Assembly: GCF_965641715.1 (NCBI RefSeq)
Contig: NZ_OZ282453.1
DNA length: 64,000 nucleotides
Source: Escherichia coli
GTDB taxonomy: Bacteria; Pseudomonadota; Gammaproteobacteria; Enterobacterales; Enterobacteriaceae
Reading direction: 5' to 3' (one strand)
The notes beneath the pieces were generated by a model that saw only the letters and a program-made list of their open reading frames with translations, did not search any database and was not told the DNA's origin. Both the position numbers and the translations under genes were made by a program. This document shows positions 2,820 to 61,012 of the stretch, piece by piece (positions within the stretch are counted from its first letter, which is position 1; every line of letters begins with the position of its first letter).

Positions 2820-3150
2820 TTGCTTGTCCCGGCCAAAGGGTTTAATACATGAAAATGCCATTCATTCGCTCGCGCTGGCATCTACAGAGAGCATGGTAGA
2901 TAGCATAAGAAATATCCACGCCGAAGATAAAATTTTCTCCATCTTGATCTAACCCATTAATTATTGAGCATAATGTAGGCAGTATAAAATAAATTAGGCG
3001 GGATATCAGGCGTCAAGAATGGAGAGCGAGAACTCTCCATTCTTGACACCTGATATTGCGGACATATTAAGAAAGCATAACGCCTGAAATGCTCACTTTG
3101 CATCAGCATGGTGATACAGCTGATGTTTATTCTAAAACCTTACTCAAGTT

Positions 3151-3805: not shown

Positions 3806-4078
3806 TTAATGTATTCTGTTTATTTTCTTACCATTGAACATACTTTTATTGTCAGCTGTCGCTGTTCTTCGGTTTGGCCCTCCTGAATCACTATTGCTAA
3901 AATCACGAATTATGCTGTCAATTAAATCTCGTCGGAAAGCATTTTCCTCAGCCGATTTCATTACGAGTAATTGCTTAATAAGAGTCTGCACCGAAAAATT
4001 TATCTTCATGCGCAGTATCTGGAGCACCGCCTGGCCAGTAATTTCATATTTTATACTTTCATTATCAGATGTCTTCAT
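3806..4078 (-). CDS. ymgA: YmgA, Rcs-connector small protein
   Basis: 90-aa ORF; synteny. Confidence 0.6.
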   Translation of the reverse strand: MKTSDNESIKYEITGQAVLQILRMKINFSVQTLIKQLLVMKSAEENAFRRDLIDSIIRDFSNSDSGGPNRRTATADNKSMFNGKKINRIH

Positions 4079-4120
4079 AACGACTTCATAGCTAACCTGT
4101 TAAATAATCAGGCTGTTGCA

Positions 4121-4357
4121 TTATTCAAAAAGCAACCCAATTAGTGCATTATAATGTTTCTGTTCCTCTTCCCCTGTCGCTTGTTCCAGTCGGCAAAGAA
4201 GTTTGGCACAAAGCGACTTTCGACTCAGATTACGTCCATCTTTCAAAATCTCAGTCACAATTTCCCCGAGAGTTTCCTGCTGAGTAGGCAAGTTAGCTTT
4301 TGCAAAGTAACGAGTGATTGCTCCCGCAGAATCTGAAGTCACTGAATTTTGATGCAT
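4121..4357 (-). CDS. ycgZ: YcgZ small protein
   Basis: 78-aa ORF transcribed divergently from bluF; synteny. Confidence 0.6.
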   Translation of the reverse strand: MHQNSVTSDSAGAITRYFAKANLPTQQETLGEIVTEILKDGRNLSRKSLCAKLLCRLEQATGEEEQKHYNALIGLLFE

Positions 4358-7028: not shown

Positions 7029-7433
7029 ATGGATCAGGTCGTTGTTTTTCAAAAGATGTTTGAGCAAGTGAGAAAAGAGCAAAACTTCTCCTGGTTTTAT
7101 TCAGAATTAAAACATCACCGTATTGCACATTACATTTATTATCTGGCTACGGATAACATCAGAATTATTACTCACGATGACACGGTTTTGTTATTAAGAG
7201 GAACCAGGAACCTGTTAAAAGTTAGTACGACCAAGAACCCTGCTAAAATAAAAGAGGCCGCATTGCTTCATATTTGCGGAAAATCTACATTTCGGGAATA
7301 CTGTTCAACACTGGCAGGCGCGGGCGTTTTCCGTTGGGTTACTGATGTTAATCATAACAAACGCAGTTACTACGCCATTGATAATACTCTTTTATATATT
7401 GAAGATGTAGAAAATAATAAACCATTAATCTAG
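7029..7433 (+). CDS. ycgX: YcgX (DUF1398-like) protein
   Basis: 134-aa ORF; synteny. Confidence 0.65.
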   Translation: MDQVVVFQKMFEQVRKEQNFSWFYSELKHHRIAHYIYYLATDNIRIITHDDTVLLLRGTRNLLKVSTTKNPAKIKEAALLHICGKSTFREYCSTLAGAGVFRWVTDVNHNKRSYYAIDNTLLYIEDVENNKPLI

Positions 7434-17856: not shown

Positions 17857-19083
17857 TTACTTCCGTTGCGCCGTTAACTCGGCAATACGGACGATCACCT
17901 GCACCGCTTTTTCCATACCTTCCAGAGTCACAAACTCATGCTTACCATGATAGTTGTAACCGCCAGTGAACAGGTTCGGGCACGGTAATCCCATAAACGA
18001 CAACTGCGCGCCGTCGGTACCACCGCGGATCGGTTTCAGTTCCGGTTCAATATCGCAGTCACGCATCGCCTGCTGGGCGATATCGAGAATATGCGGATGC
18101 TCAACCACTTTCTCGCGCATATTGTAGTAACTGTCTTCAATCACCAATTCAATGTAGCAATCAGGATGTAACCCTTTGCCCACTTTTTTGGCGATCTCCA
18201 TCATTTTACGTTTACGCGCTTCAAACTGTTTACGGTCGAAATCACGGATGATGTAGTGCATATCGGCCCGTTCAACGGTGCCTTTCATGCTCGCCAGGTG
18301 ATAGAAACCTTCATAGCCTTCTGTCATTTCCGGGCTTTCATCCGCCGGAACTTCCGCATGAATACGTGCCGCCAGCGACAGCGCATTTACCATCACTCCT
18401 TTCGCCGTGCCCGGATGAACATTGTTACCGACAATTTTGATATTGACCGATGCGGCGTTGAAGTTTTCAAACTCCAGTTCGCCTACGCCACCACCATCAA
18501 CAGTGTAAGCCCAGCGGGCATCGAAGGCATCAACATCAAAATGTTTCGCCCCTTTGCCCACTTCTTCATCCGGGGTAAAGGCGACGCGAATATCACCATG
18601 CGGAATGTTTTTCTGTTGCAATACCGCCAGCGCGGTCATGATTTCTGCAATACCTGCTTTGTCATCGGCACCTAACAAGGTTTTACCATCGGTGGTAATC
18701 AGCGTCTGACCCAGTAGCTGATGCAGCACCGGGAACATAACCGGTGATAAAACTTCATCGCCGATACCCAGCGCAATATCGCCACCGCGATAGTTTTCAA
18801 CAATTTGCGGATTAACATTTTTGCCGCTGCAATCCGGTGAGGTATCCACATGAGAAATAAAGCCAATCGCCGGGATATCGCCAGGGACGTTAGCCGGTAA
18901 CGTCGCCATCAAAGTGCCCTTCTCACTTAAGGTCACATTGATAAGCCCCATCTCTTCGAGCTGCTCTTTCAGCAGATGCAATAACTTCCATTGGCCTTCC
19001 GTGCTGGGAACCTGTCTCACCCCTGCTTTTGATTGGGTATCCAGAGACACGTAGTTCAAAAATCGCTCAAGTAGTTTATCCAT
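17857..19083 (-). CDS. pepT: Peptidase T (tripeptide aminopeptidase)
   Basis: ORF 17857-19125; M20 peptidase motifs; likely start [16 protein letters not shown]. Confidence 0.9.
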
Positions 19084-40458: not shown

Positions 40459-41195
40459 TTAAAGCGAGCGGATGCCCACGCTGACCAGATGTTCAGACAG
40501 ATCCGGCTCCGGTTCACCACCATTGACCAGCATCCGGCTCATTGCTGTAAACATCGCAACAGGGCCGTCGATTTTGGCTTCCAGCGTGGATTTATTCGGG
40601 AAGATATTGTCGTTTTTGTCCGGTTTTACCGTAACGTTAGACATCATCCAGTTCATGACCGGATGATTGCTGTGATGGAAACGCCCGGCATAGACCAGTG
40701 ATTCCGTTTCCTTCATGGCCTCTGACAGATTGCGAACCGTCTGCGGAACCTCCACCAGCGGTATCCCTTCTTCAGCCAGTGCCAGGCTGAACTGCATCGC
40801 GCTCCACGGGTCAAATCCCAGCTCCCTGAGGTTTTCACCACCAATCCATTCCAGTAAGTCACTTTTTATCTGAGCATGATCGATAACATCACCATCCGTC
40901 AGAATCAGCTTATCCATCTCCGCCCACTTCCGGTAAAGTTCTGCCTGCTGCCGCGAGCATCGTTCCAGCCGTCCTTCCGGAAGCCAGAATTTAAAATCGG
41001 CATGAACATGCCCGTTATCCGTTCGCCAGAGTTTTGCCGCCGCACAGATATCAATCTTATGAGCAAGGTCAACGCCGACCCACATGGGATACGTTTTCAG
41101 CTCATGTCGTGGGGCAATGTATTCGCACTTCTCCCACTTAATCATGTCCATCCAGGCAGACTCTGCTGTTACCCACACATTCATGTGTTTTGTGA
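40459..41195 (-). pseudogene. Prophage terminase large subunit, C-terminal fragment, separated from its N-terminal part by the satellite insertion
   Basis: 241-aa ORF MNVWVTAESAWMDMIKWEKC... aligns residue-for-residue with the middle of the satellite TerL (NIWCQGATPWMGNGAWAEC...). Confidence 0.8.
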
Positions 41196-41270
41196 GAATA
41201 TTTCAAGTTTTTTAAAATCACCTGTATATCAATCATTTAAAATGAAAAAACAGTCTTTATAAATCATCGA

Positions 41271-41292
41271 GCAATACACAGCGCAATACACG
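41271..41292. repeat. Tandem GCAATACACAG / CGCAATACACG motif near the satellite left end; candidate integrase arm site
   Basis: Same motif occurs as a tandem pair at 56094-56116 beside the int start. Confidence 0.45.
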
Positions 41293-41479
41293 TATCTGTA
41301 TTGTTTTAATGCTGATACACACCGTTTTTTGATACAGTGATTCGACCTACCATCGCGAAGCATTTTTTATTTCTTGTGTGTAACAATCTGACGAGGTGAG
41401 CACTCAAAGAGATAAGAGGCAGTAGAAATTTCGATCCCCCCCCTGAATGCAATTTTTCGTATATATATATACAAAACAG

Positions 41480-41636
41480 TGCGGGTTATGCGGGTTAGCG
41501 GGTTATCTTCGCGTGCTAAGTATTTTTTACTCTTTAATATCAATACGTTAAAAAACAACGTATCTAAATATCAGCCAGAATGTAACCCGCAAGACATTCA
41601 AAATAACCCGCAAACACCACTCAAATAACCCGCAAA
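41480..41636. repeat. Iteron cluster B: three direct TGCGGGTTAT-like copies and three inverted ATAACCCGCAA copies around an AT-rich spacer
   Basis: Direct copies at 41480-41508; inverted at 41582-41591, 41603-41613, 41626-41636; same consensus as cluster A. Confidence 0.6.
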
Positions 41637-47737: not shown

Positions 47738-47973
47738 GAAGGTTTTCTCGTATTGGTTAAGATTCAGGACGTGAAACCAACACGGAGGGAGCGCCGCCCG
47801 ACACTCTCGGCATCTCGCAGATCAACCCGGCATCGCGCAGGGGGTCAGGCGGCATTGTGGCGGCTCACGTCTGAGTGCCACACGCCAACATATACATAAA
47901 AATCAGTATGTAAACATCAGCCAGAATCACCGAACAACCTGGAACAACCACGAACAAATAATTTACAAAACCT

Positions 47974-49317: not shown

Positions 49318-49442
49318 TGCGGGTTATAATCGCACTTTTGCGGGTTATAACTGCCGTTTTGCGGGTTACGTGCGGGTTATTGATTTCCTTTTTATTCATA
49401 CAGTTAATGCACTTATATACATGATAACCCGCATAACCCGCA
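49318..49442. repeat. Iteron cluster A (candidate satellite replication origin): four direct TGCGGGTTAT-like copies, an AT-rich spacer, two inverted copies
   Basis: Direct copies at 49318, 49339, 49359, 49371; inverted ATAACCCGCATAACCCGCAA at 49423-49442; immediately 3' of the primase gene. Confidence 0.65.
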
Positions 49443-54850: not shown

Positions 54851-56074
54851 TCACGCGTAACTATTTGAATCATTACTGTCACCACTAATTTGCTTATTCA
54901 GATAGTCGTACCACCAGTTCATAGCTTCTTTTTTTCTGTCCATATACTGGCTTCTGTTATAAACCCCGGCAACACCGCCTAATGTGTGCCCAAGCAACTG
55001 TTCAACCACATTATGTTCAAAACCATGATCACTTAGTTTTGTGGCAAACACTCTTCGCATATCATGCGCCGTCCATTTCTCCGAGTGTTTCATCCTTTTC
55101 CATGTCTTACCGATAGTTACGCTTGCCGTACACTGACGCATATCAAACCCAATCACATTTTCTTTGTTACCTGTTATTTTTTTTAACGTAACTAACCAGT
55201 TAAACATGCCATCAGGAATCGGTCTGATTATTTCCCTGCCATTTTTGCTATGATCAGCGGGAACGCGCCATAATTTCTTATCAAAATCCCACTCTACCCA
55301 GGACGACAGTAATACTTCTGACAGTCGACAACCAAAAACTACCAGGAAACGTAAAATAATTCGGTTTTCATATGATAATTCGTGATTGTCATAATCAGTA
55401 TTAATACTTCGCCATAAATCTCTGATTTCATCATCTGTTAAAACCCTGCTTCTTCGCGCAGACTTTTTTCCCACATCACAGACCTCAAGATCATCAATTT
55501 CATGACTAATCGCGTATTTTCTTACCCTACAAAATTTAAGCGCCTGTTTTGATATACGCAACAAAGCTCCGGCCTGTACAGGTGCTACTTTTTTTATTTT
55601 GTCAAAACACTTAATCCACATAGATATAGAGCAATCACTAAGTGGTACATGACCAATCACCGGATAAATATGTTTACCAAAGCACTGCCTGATATGTTCT
55701 GCTCCCCTACGCTTATCCATTGCATAATTATCAAGCCAGTATTCAAGTGCCTCACGAACGGTAACAGGTTGCAAGGTGGCTTCCCGTTCAATTTTTATCT
55801 GAATCCGTGGATCTCTGCCCTCCGCAAGCCAGGTTCGACACTGATCGCGCATCTCTCTCGCTGATTTGAGACTCAGATCAGGATATTTTCCAAGTGTCAG
55901 CCAGATGGGCGCGGTTCCCCTTCCCGCCAGTCTGTAAAAGAAAACAAAACTAACACATCCGTATTTACTGACCCGTACCGAAAGCCCGTTACCATCAGCG
56001 ATGGTTTCCTGCCTCTCACTCCTGCGCCCAAGCAGGGAACGAAGTTTTTTATCGCTCAGTTTGTTTAGCGCCAT
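54851..56074 (-). CDS. int: Tyrosine integrase, P4 type
   Basis: ORF 54851-56110; likely start MALNKLSDKKL; arm-binding N-domain; catalytic C-domain with HxxR and terminal Tyr region. Confidence 0.9.
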   Translation of the reverse strand: MALNKLSDKKLRSLLGRRSERQETIADGNGLSVRVSKYGCVSFVFFYRLAGRGTAPIWLTLGKYPDLSLKSAREMRDQCRTWLAEGRDPRIQIKIEREATLQPVTVREALEYWLDNYAMDKRRGAEHIRQCFGKHIYPVIGHVPLSDCSISMWIKCFDKIKKVAPVQAGALLRISKQALKFCRVRKYAISHEIDDLEVCDVGKKSARRSRVLTDDEIRDLWRSINTDYDNHELSYENRIILRFLVVFGCRLSEVLLSSWVEWDFDKKLWRVPADHSKNGREIIRPIPDGMFNWLVTLKKITGNKENVIGFDMRQCTASVTIGKTWKRMKHSEKWTAHDMRRVFATKLSDHGFEHNVVEQLLGHTLGGVAGVYNRSQYMDRKKEAMNWWYDYLNKQISGDSNDSNSYA

Positions 56075-56093
56075 GTGATTTATAACCCGTTTT

Positions 56094-56116
56094 TGCAATA
56101 CACAGTGCAATACACA
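56094..56116. repeat. Tandem TGCAATACACAG x2 near the satellite right end; candidate integrase arm site
   Basis: Same motif as 41271-41292; 20-40 bp upstream of the int start. Confidence 0.45.
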
Positions 56117-56245
56117 AATGATGAAAACAGCCAGAACCTTCCAGAAAAAACAAAAACGACGAACAAGAAAAAATCTTTTTCTTTCATTTGGTTACTAAAA
56201 AAATCAGGACAGGTCGCACTGTTGTTACGGCGTGATGTTACTTTC

Positions 56246-57273
56246 TTTGTGAAAAAATTCACCCGCGCCGAGACCTGCTCCTTCGCCTTTTTCGCCAGAC
56301 GACGCAGATCATCCCAGCGTTTACAGATGCCCAGGCCGGGATTCGCTTTCTGCCAGACCGTTTCATCAAACGGATCATCTCCCTCATCGAGCGTGTAAAT
56401 GATCGCAAAGTAAGAGTCGTCTTTTACCGCGCCCTCCACGTCACTGTTATAGCCACGCAATACCTTAATGGCGTAATCACGCTGCTCGTAACAAATCCCT
56501 TCCTTGTTAAACCCTGCCGTGGTGATACCAAATAAAAGGGACTGCAGACGGGCACCGGTTGCCGTTTCCAGAACGTCCCACACGTCACGGGTTTTATGTG
56601 CATGCAGCTCATCAATAATGGCGCAGTGGATGTTCAGACCGTCCAGGTTGTTTGCATCCGAGGAAAGCGGTTCAAATTTTGATGCGCTCTGCTCCTGGTA
56701 GATCGCCAGCTTGTTGAAATCAAATAACCGCCCGAGTGTCGACCGGGCTTTTCTGACCATATTTTTGGCGTCTTCAAACACGATTCTGGCCTGGTCACGC
56801 GTGGTTGCGGCTGAATACACCTCAGCTCCACCTTCACCATCTGCCCCCGTCATATACAGGCCGATACCCGATGACAGAGTTGATTTTGCGTTTTTACGGG
56901 CGACTTCGTTGTACGCCGTCCGGAACCGGCGCACCATCACCGGACGTCCGCTGCCATCGCTGCGCATGACAACTTCCCCGGTCTCTTCATTCACCAGCGG
57001 AATGACAAAACCAAAAATATTAATGAGGATAAATACATGCCAGTCCATCAACTCAATGGGCTGGCCTGCCAGCGCCCCTTTTACATGAGGCACAAATTTG
57101 TAGAAATTCAGGATGTGCTGCGCACGGGGTTCACTGAAATAAATCCCCCGCTCTTCGCCGTACTTCAGATCATCAAGAAAACGCTGGCAGGCCAGACGGA
57201 CAAATTCCCCAGCAACAATTTCTCCTGCAACAACACGTTCGGCGTAGCGGATCCCGTCAGCCACTTTTGCCAT
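56246..57273 (-). pseudogene. Prophage terminase large subunit, N-terminal fragment (about 343 codons), interrupted by the satellite
   Basis: ORF 56080-57273; terminase ATPase region through ...ARVNFFTKK, then non-terminase read-through into satellite DNA. Confidence 0.8.
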
Positions 57274-60858: not shown

Positions 60859-60935
60859 TGGTCCGCCACCGAGGACTCGAACCTCGCACCATCAACTTAG
60901 AAGGTTGATGCTCTATCCCGATGAGCTAGTGGCGG
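60859..60935 (-). tRNA. tRNA-Arg (anticodon UCU)
   Basis: Folded by hand: acceptor CCGCCAC/GTGGCGG, anticodon loop CT-TCT-AA, T-loop TTCGAGT, 3' ACCA. Confidence 0.85.
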
Positions 60936-60936
60936 T

Positions 60937-61012
60937 TGGTGGCCCTTGCTGGATTTGAACCAGCGACCTGGCGATTATGAGTCGCTCGCTCTCACCACTG
61001 AGCTAAAGGGCC
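60937..61012 (-). tRNA. tRNA-Ile2 / Met-like (anticodon CAU), ileX/ileZ-like
   Basis: Reverse complement GGCCCTTTAGCTCAGTGG...GACTCATAATCGC...GGTTCAAATCC...GGGCCACCA; near-identical in layout to E. coli ileX. Confidence 0.85.

Follow-up and report, generated by a model that had tools for sequence, protein, structure and literature searches.

The closest described relatives of the element considered here are the helper-embedded PICIs (HE-PICIs) described by Tommasini, Mageeney & Williams (2023, NAR Genom Bioinform 5:lqad036; PMC10111431). In the section of that work devoted to attachment sites, each attP is reported to carry two co-oriented copies of a doubled motif, tgTGTATTGCa x2, placed 81+/-2 bp from the attP centre on one side and 132+/-2 bp on the other. 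[quoted passage not shown] In the supplement of the same study, the site A_Terminase_1_246 is represented by E. coli elements of 15 kb, with the att identity 'tcacaaa' or 'ttaccaa'.

A comparable arrangement is annotated in satellite P4. The GenBank record NC_001609 contains 'attP arm sequence repeat' 12-mers at 3942-3965, two in tandem 15 nt upstream of the int ATG, followed by the core (4078-4097) and by a second co-oriented tandem pair (4151-4174). According to the mention of Piazzolla (2006) in PMC2951348, P4 Int autoregulates by direct DNA binding near its start site. Similarly, in the KplE1 (CPS-53) prophage, which encodes IntS and TorI, arm sites are located between the core and the int start, and IntS represses its own gene (Panis et al. 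2010; PMC2951348).

The window, i.e., the whole 64-kb stretch of E. coli DNA that was analysed, contains a 15-kb HE-PICI that interrupts terL of a lambdoid prophage, the head of which is of the HK97 type. When the two flanks are joined via one copy of the core, the resulting 600 bp match intact terL of five E. coli genomes at 100% identity; the reconstructed TerL has 586 aa and is interrupted at about codon 340. Approximately 905 E. coli genomes present the empty terL site, against some 35 in which it is occupied. Both int and terL are encoded on the minus strand, and the insertion lies inside a late gene without a replacement gene end in attP. The initial annotation had referred to a 7-bp core; TTTGTGA is present at both junctions, and the joined flanks bear this out. 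With junctions and core verified, the tandem pairs fall 76-98 bp (left) and 129-151 bp (right) inward of the junctions, matching the distances originally given. Both pairs share one orientation (the + strand), as claimed, and they would flank the core in the excised circle, where the reconstructed order is pair, core, pair. The coordinates of all these features are collected in Table 1.

Table 1. Features of the attachment region and of the candidate binding proteins, with their positions in the window
Feature	Position	Strand	Remarks
Core TTTGTGA, left junction (int-distal)	41189..41195		flank joining and sequence
Core TTTGTGA, right junction (int-proximal)	56246..56252		flank joining and sequence; supplement att identity 'tcacaaa'
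Interrupted helper terL, 5′ part	56253..57273	-	co-oriented with int
Interrupted helper terL, 3′ part	40459..41188	-	sequence comparison
Int-proximal doubled motif (P-arm)	56095..56117	+	start 20 nt from int ATG; end 132 bp from core centre
Int-distal doubled motif (P′-arm)	41271..41293	+	start 79 bp from core centre; also in left arms of L001, L002, L003 and L095
Possible weak third site AAAACAGCCAG	56124..56134	+	partial conservation only
Abutting inverted partial copy, CAATACAGAT on minus strand	41294..41303	-	particular to this subgroup
IHF-consensus match TATCAATCATTTA	41227..41239	+	between core and left pair
Tyrosine integrase (Int), 407 aa	54851..56074	-	Pfam PF13356 (1e-17) and PF00589 (1.4e-18)
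Int arm-binding N-domain, ~aa 6-92	55799-56059	-	Pfam Arm-DNA-bind_3 (PF13356), P4-type
AlpA-family gene 1, 77 aa	54652..54885	-	Pfam PF05930 (1.9e-9); directly downstream of int; candidate excisionase, rival binder
AlpA-family gene 2, 102 aa	54310..54618	-	57% identical to fis-PICI HTH protein
Single ATAACCCG	56083..56090	+	isolated copy of satellite iteron core; no support as att component

The gene content of the element is that of an HE-PICI, with int and AlpA, a Bro-N zone, a replication zone containing primase and SSB, a late zone and no tail genes; Pfam matches were obtained for Int, for two AlpA proteins and for Bro-N. A near-identical element in E. coli KFu019 (NZ_CP091700) encodes an integrase, two HTH genes, BRO-N, a DUF927 primase, SSB and PerC, together with its own major capsid protein, protease, portal, connector, HNH, TerS and TerL, and is bounded on both sides by terL pseudogene halves. 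The correspondence with the published family extends to the attachment site. The motif given in PMC10111431, tgTGTATTGCantgTGTATTGCa, is the reverse complement of that of the window, and the distances measured here, 79 bp (41192-41271) and 132 bp (56117-56249), fit the published geometry of the doubled TGTATTGC. Likewise, 'tcacaaa' is the reverse complement of TTTGTGA, and the TTGGTAA variant ('ttaccaa') is seen among the retrieved relatives. The HE-PICI doubled motif and the feature of the window are thus one and the same, with no difference in the motif itself, and since motif, distances and site group all match, the element, its insertion site and its motif were already catalogued. The doubled motif, its spacing and the hypothesis that it is contacted by the Int arm domain have been known since 2023, so that little is added here as a discovery. 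Regarding the core, it is polymorphic among genomes at two positions, TT[T/C/G]GT[G/A]A (relatives L001, L004-L021 and L224-L226). In the window the two junctions share one core variant; among the relatives, pooled across genomes, the variants found at left junctions are also those found at right junctions.

The left pair reads GCAATACACAG C GCAATACACGT and the right pair GCAATACACAG T GCAATACACAA, both with a 12-bp period; the latter had been placed at 56094-56116 in the initial annotation, which found the pair correctly and missed its true span by one base. The general form of the pair, GCAATACACAG-y-GCAATACAC, occurs exactly twice in the window (the 23-bp pair may also be written GCAATACACAGTGCAATACAC, with GCAATACA as the half-site). 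Accordingly, a scan of both strands with the pattern GCAATACACNNNGCAATACAC returned 2 exact matches in 64 kb and a match in none of 100 dinucleotide-preserving shuffles (expectation 0.00), and a tolerance of up to 3 mismatches gave the same two matches and nothing further. By contrast, the single 11-mer with up to 2 mismatches is not enriched in the window (24 matches vs 18.6 expected), which locates the signal in the exact tandem pair. A repeat search over the whole element, in which the arm pair fell outside the top 20 families, was uninformative.

Other components of the arms can be recognized around the pairs. The strict IHF consensus, WATCAANNNNTTR, has only 6 matches in the window, one of which falls between the core and the left pair (Table 1), and substitutions inside this IHF-like site in a left-arm alignment of close relatives are confined to the N positions of the consensus. 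This alignment, with a 94% mean column identity, is too similar to test the motif, and the core polymorphism is visible in it. On the opposite side, the spacer between the core and the int-proximal pair is A-tract-rich, and the possible third site corresponds to better copies in L022, L002 and L095 (GCAACAGCCAG, GCAACACACAG and GCAACGCCGAA, respectively), where they lie 17 bp after the second repeat.

The initial annotation had named recurrence of the motif at the ends of related satellites as a check, and the motif does recur in both arms of diverged relatives. Elements whose Int is 44-66% identical to that of the window are inserted in other prophage late genes, namely a lambda-type capsid gene (L002, L003 and L136), a ClpP-type protease site (L095, L120 and L097), Terminase_1:132 (L122 and L098) and a position just after gpW (L022). 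Every one of them retains the doubled motif, in both arms where both ends are available, and the rest of the arm diverges. For the integrases of the capsid, protease and Terminase_1:132 elements, the identity of 44-66% over Int corresponds to 56-76% over the N-domain; these values are compatible with the single HE-PICI clade of integrases, although they are pairwise identities and not a phylogeny. In an alignment of seven right arms anchored on the pair, nothing but the block GCAATACA...TGCAATAC is invariant, and the cores share one column. Furthermore, a search of IMG/VR with an N-domain alignment identified 80 loci with 65-100% N-domain identity, and in all 79 loci of this Int clade for which upstream sequence exists the doubled motif lies within 120 bp of int (79/79). 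Reduced to distinct arms, these loci form 8 groups, in which information content is maximal only on the two 8-mers and the doubled motif is the only fully conserved block of the arm across the diverged groups.

Several observations were made in the course of this comparison. A scan of IMG/VR with GCAATACNNNNNGCAATAC was discarded as a test of specificity, as its 14 specified bases are too short (8 of the 120 matches listed adjoin a related integrase); the same scan yielded new subclades. In L127 (~7272-7347), an extra single GCAATACACAC is found between the int ATG and the doubled motif, and the pair is ~63 nt from the ATG, compared to 13-25 nt. The element in L022 (9644-9860; IMGVR_UViG_2718218031_000006), the Int of which is 66% identical, is inserted ~60 codons into the ORF after gpW of a lambda-like prophage. 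This ORF is presumably the portal gene, although its 71-aa fragment has no Pfam match, and the site may be the 'B:Phage_portal_2:21' that is mapped only putatively in PMC10111431. Finally, five integrase loci of the HE clade (L158-L161 and L223) come from one source genome, IMGVR_UViG_2836755666, two of them on the same 74-kb contig, which fits the multi-HE-PICI genomes reported in PMC10111431.

Beyond the HE-PICIs, an equivalent architecture was found in two other classes of PICIs. In the cf-PICI inserted at fis (L146), GTGTTTATACAA ATGTTTATACAG lies 17 nt upstream of int and two copies of ATGTTTATACAG are present in the far arm; the doubled 12-mer, rTGTTTATACAr x2, occupies positions 3009-3032 and 18900-18923, with the motif TGTTTATACA as opposed to GCAATACAC here. 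In elements of the EcCIEDL933 type, located at the phoQ site (L023 and L024), TTAACTACACCA TTAACTACACCG lies 23 nt upstream of int and TTGACTACACCA TTAACTACACCG is found in the far arm, the doubled 12-mer being TTrACTACACCr x2 (2045-2068 and 17398-17421 in L023; 6325-6348 and 17302-17325 in L024). Both the fis and the phoQ pairs are present in the two arms and co-oriented, and one strict IHF match is likewise found in these classes between a pair and the core. The distance from pair to pair in the reconstructed attP is 210 bp in the window, 212 bp in L002, 209 bp in L023 and 209 bp in L146. Given that the fis and phoQ elements have doubled 12-mers of their own at the same spacing, the classes have the architecture in common and differ in the 12-mer only, so the arrangement is not unique to HE-PICIs. 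The extension of the doubled-12-mer, ~210-bp architecture to fis and phoQ PICIs is the new point of this analysis, a modest addition that qualifies the published uniqueness, and it strengthens the assignment of the pairs to the integrase arms.

Taking these classes together, we are inclined to think that the layout represents a design of attP general to the integrases of PICIs and, more loosely, of P4, consisting of two co-oriented tandem 12-bp pairs ~210 bp apart, one of them 15-25 nt from the int ATG, with a 12-mer particular to each integrase subclade that would be read by the beta-sheet of the arm domain. If such a design were general, arm recognition would be the module that stays fixed and core recognition the one free to evolve, explaining how one clade has repeatedly re-targeted new prophage late genes; it would also provide a sequence rule for satellite ends and predict cross-reactivity between satellites. 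The modular attP design suggested by the fis and phoQ elements could be of use in mapping satellite boundaries and in engineering integrase specificity.

The integrase of the window carries an arm domain of the P4 type. Its N-terminus matches PDB 3JU0 and 3JTZ by sequence (phmmer), and an AlphaFold2 model of Int (pLDDT 83.7) predicts strands at residues 23-28, 31-35, 41-47 and 57-64, followed by helices. The model superposes on 3JU0, 3JTZ and 3RMP with a TM of 0.76-0.88 and an rmsd of 1.3-1.6 A. The last of these structures is entitled 'Structural basis for the recognition of attP substrates by P4-like integrases'. The arm domains of the Yersinia HPI and Erwinia HAI7 integrases (3JTZ, 3RMP and 3JU0) therefore share the modelled N-domain fold (TM 0.76-0.88; 32-33% identity); they belong to other elements, pathogenicity islands in tRNA genes, and the likeness here is that of the arm-domain fold. 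P4 shares with the window the Pfam arm domain in Int and two co-oriented tandem 12-bp pairs straddling the core. It differs in its repeat (wATGCCCCCAAt), in an Int that is 25% identical, in the separation of the pairs (185 bp vs about 210 bp), in a 20-bp identity block within a tRNA gene and in an extra inverted repeat copy over the int start. As for lambda, its attP (P1, P2, P'1-P'3) also combines a hetero-bivalent integrase with arm sites that are distinct from the core and located in both arms, and its size of ~250 bp with IHF-type bending between arm and core resembles the layout described here (PMC2951348). However, the arm domain of the lambda integrase belongs to a family other than the PF13356 found here, the sites in the window are strictly two and two, and lambda int lies on the other side of attP under a different regulation. 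KplE1 shares with the window the location of arm-type sites between the core and the int start codon, but its mapped intS promoter overlaps the sites, whereas no promoter-like sequence was found here and the element lies in a helper late operon. Since the P4 record displays the same layout, the parallel with P4 and lambda arm sites drawn in the initial annotation is an apt one.

From this evidence, the GCAATACAC tandem pairs are most probably the arm-type sites of the satellite's P4-family tyrosine integrase, a predicted binding to which we assign a probability of roughly 75%. Their conservation, the PF13356 arm domain of Int and the P4 layout all support this assignment, which is the one made originally from the sequence. 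The repeated sequence is unlike the core, is present in both attP arms and keeps fixed distances. Its identity also co-varies with the Int N-domain: across the few classes available, elements that retain the arm domain also retain the sequence, and other 12-mers are found in fis, phoQ and P4 together with more distant N-domains. Within the clade, the N-domain is 57-76% identical to that of the window vs 40-55% for the remainder of the protein (L022 excepted), the pattern expected if arm sites stay fixed while core specificity changes. The N-domains of the fis and phoQ integrases are 50-52% identical to the window, below all members bearing the same motif (56-76%); this separation, at least 56% within the class vs at most 52% outside it, is drawn from about a dozen sequences and three motif classes. 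Residues of Int that are class-specific cluster in the modelled strands, where, for example, SFVFF is replaced by SWVFT (fis) or TWYFT (phoQ), and P-I/V-W-L-T by HR--LT (fis) or PERIK (phoQ).

The most serious competitor is that the small AlpA-family protein encoded immediately downstream of int binds the doubled motif, shaping both arms for excision as an excisionase or regulating int as a transcription factor, and that Int contacts the core only. AlpA is named as an alternative in PMC10111431. Winged-helix proteins of the Xis type recognize direct repeats in tandem, and a 12-bp repeat of this kind is typical of such directionality factors. In the window, as in each of the HE-PICI relatives checked, int is directly followed by an AlpA-family gene, so that Int and AlpA cannot be told apart by co-occurrence alone. 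The two candidates can be compared by their relationship to motif class. AlpA identities overlap, with 39-60% among elements of the same motif, i.e., the GCAATACAC class, vs 41-48% for the different motifs of fis and phoQ, so that AlpA identity does not track class, an unfavourable result for AlpA and not a decisive one; the second AlpA of the window is even 57% identical to the fis-PICI HTH protein despite their different motifs. In addition, sites for an RDF (Xis/AlpA) are classically one-arm tandem repeats, placed between core and Int arm sites, that co-vary with the RDF and are not symmetric in both arms, but the pairs are present in both arms. The same two-pair geometry is annotated as attP arm repeats in P4, and an Int with an intact arm domain would be left with no arm sites if AlpA occupied them. 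Although the classes compared are few, this comparative evidence favours Int over AlpA as the predicted binder, and we regard binding by AlpA as unlikely. As a side observation, the AlpA genes are tandem downstream of int, the first resembling the single AlpA of other HE-PICIs, and an excisionase/activator role may be split between the two.

Less likely still is that the pairs are bound by some other protein, such as Bro-N or another satellite regulator, or a host factor, acting for instance as a roadblock or operator on late-operon read-through into int. The right pair does lie between the interrupted late gene and int, both of which are co-oriented, an int promoter was not detected in a scan of both arms, and an unknown binding protein was allowed for in PMC10111431. 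Nevertheless, such a role leaves unexplained the second co-oriented pair beyond the core, at a fixed 209-212 bp in three motif classes. Bro-N and other cargo genes differ among the relatives that retain the motif, and the doubled motif does not match the IHF consensus, a separate IHF-like site being present. That the similarity of the two arms reflects chance or a functionless relic duplication might be suggested by the lack of enrichment of the loose 11-mer in the window; it is refuted by the expectation of 0.00 for the exact pair, by its presence in 79/79 loci and by its being the sole fully conserved block across 8 arm groups, and its probability is close to nil.

Binding of Int to the pairs would assemble the attachment site as follows. 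The attP of the excised circle would comprise ~256 bp, running from the int ATG through 20 nt, the pair 56095-56117 and a 128 bp A-tract-rich spacer to the core TTTGTGA, and beyond it through 31 bp, the IHF-like site and another 31 bp to the pair 41271-41293. An Int tetramer would place its catalytic and core-binding domains on the 7-bp core and its four N-terminal arm domains on the four 12-bp half-sites, and bending of the DNA between arms and core would fold the arms back to form the intasome. This predicted complex would integrate the satellite into the helper terL and, with an AlpA-type directionality factor, would excise it and restore terL. This feature delimits the complete attP of a satellite by which the terminase gene of the helper is silenced until excision, and is therefore central to the timing of satellite and helper development.

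With 20 nt between the int-proximal pair and the int start, Int bound there may also lower the expression of its own gene, as reported for P4 and KplE1. When both arms were scanned for sigma-70 promoters, none was found between the core and the int ATG, and a single weak match on the + strand (41190-41218) does not exceed those in shuffled sequence. In the light of this result, autoregulation is a weak proposal here, made by analogy with P4 and KplE1, and int could be transcribed equally well by read-through from the helper late operon. The alternative of the right pair as an operator over an int promoter was likewise left without support by promoter prediction.

The initial annotation had also pointed to an iteron-like ATAACCCG beside the int start. 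The sequence is present and the label is apt, since CGGGTTA occurs 22 times in the window, compared to an expectation of 6.0+/-2.6, and 12 of these copies fall in two clusters. Each cluster consists of six copies of GCGGGTTAY in mixed orientation, one at 41482-41632, between the stop of the satellite terL and the left att arm, and the other at 49320-49440, just 3′ of the DUF927 primase gene. This enrichment and clustering identify the unit as the replication iteron of the satellite, and the cluster at 49320-49440 is likely the ori. A role for the copy at 56083-56090 as a component of the att site was rejected: it is single, lies away from both clusters, and the relatives L002, L003 and L022 have no ATAACCCG upstream of int. 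For these reasons it is best read as a chance event, and it is probably a chance copy of the iteron.

The two-cluster arrangement recalls the P4 ori and crr, the latter of which adjoins attP. Near the left end of the satellite, a poly-C run (41436-41443) and a (TA)n run (41460-41472) differ in length among otherwise near-identical elements. A tandem tRNA-Arg(TCT) and tRNA-Met are encoded on the minus strand at 60859-61012, in the helper prophage region. Within the satellite, a 22-bp direct repeat, GTATsTAAAyATCAGCCAGAAT, is 91% identical between its copies at 41560-41581 and 47906-47927 and may be a shared regulatory site.
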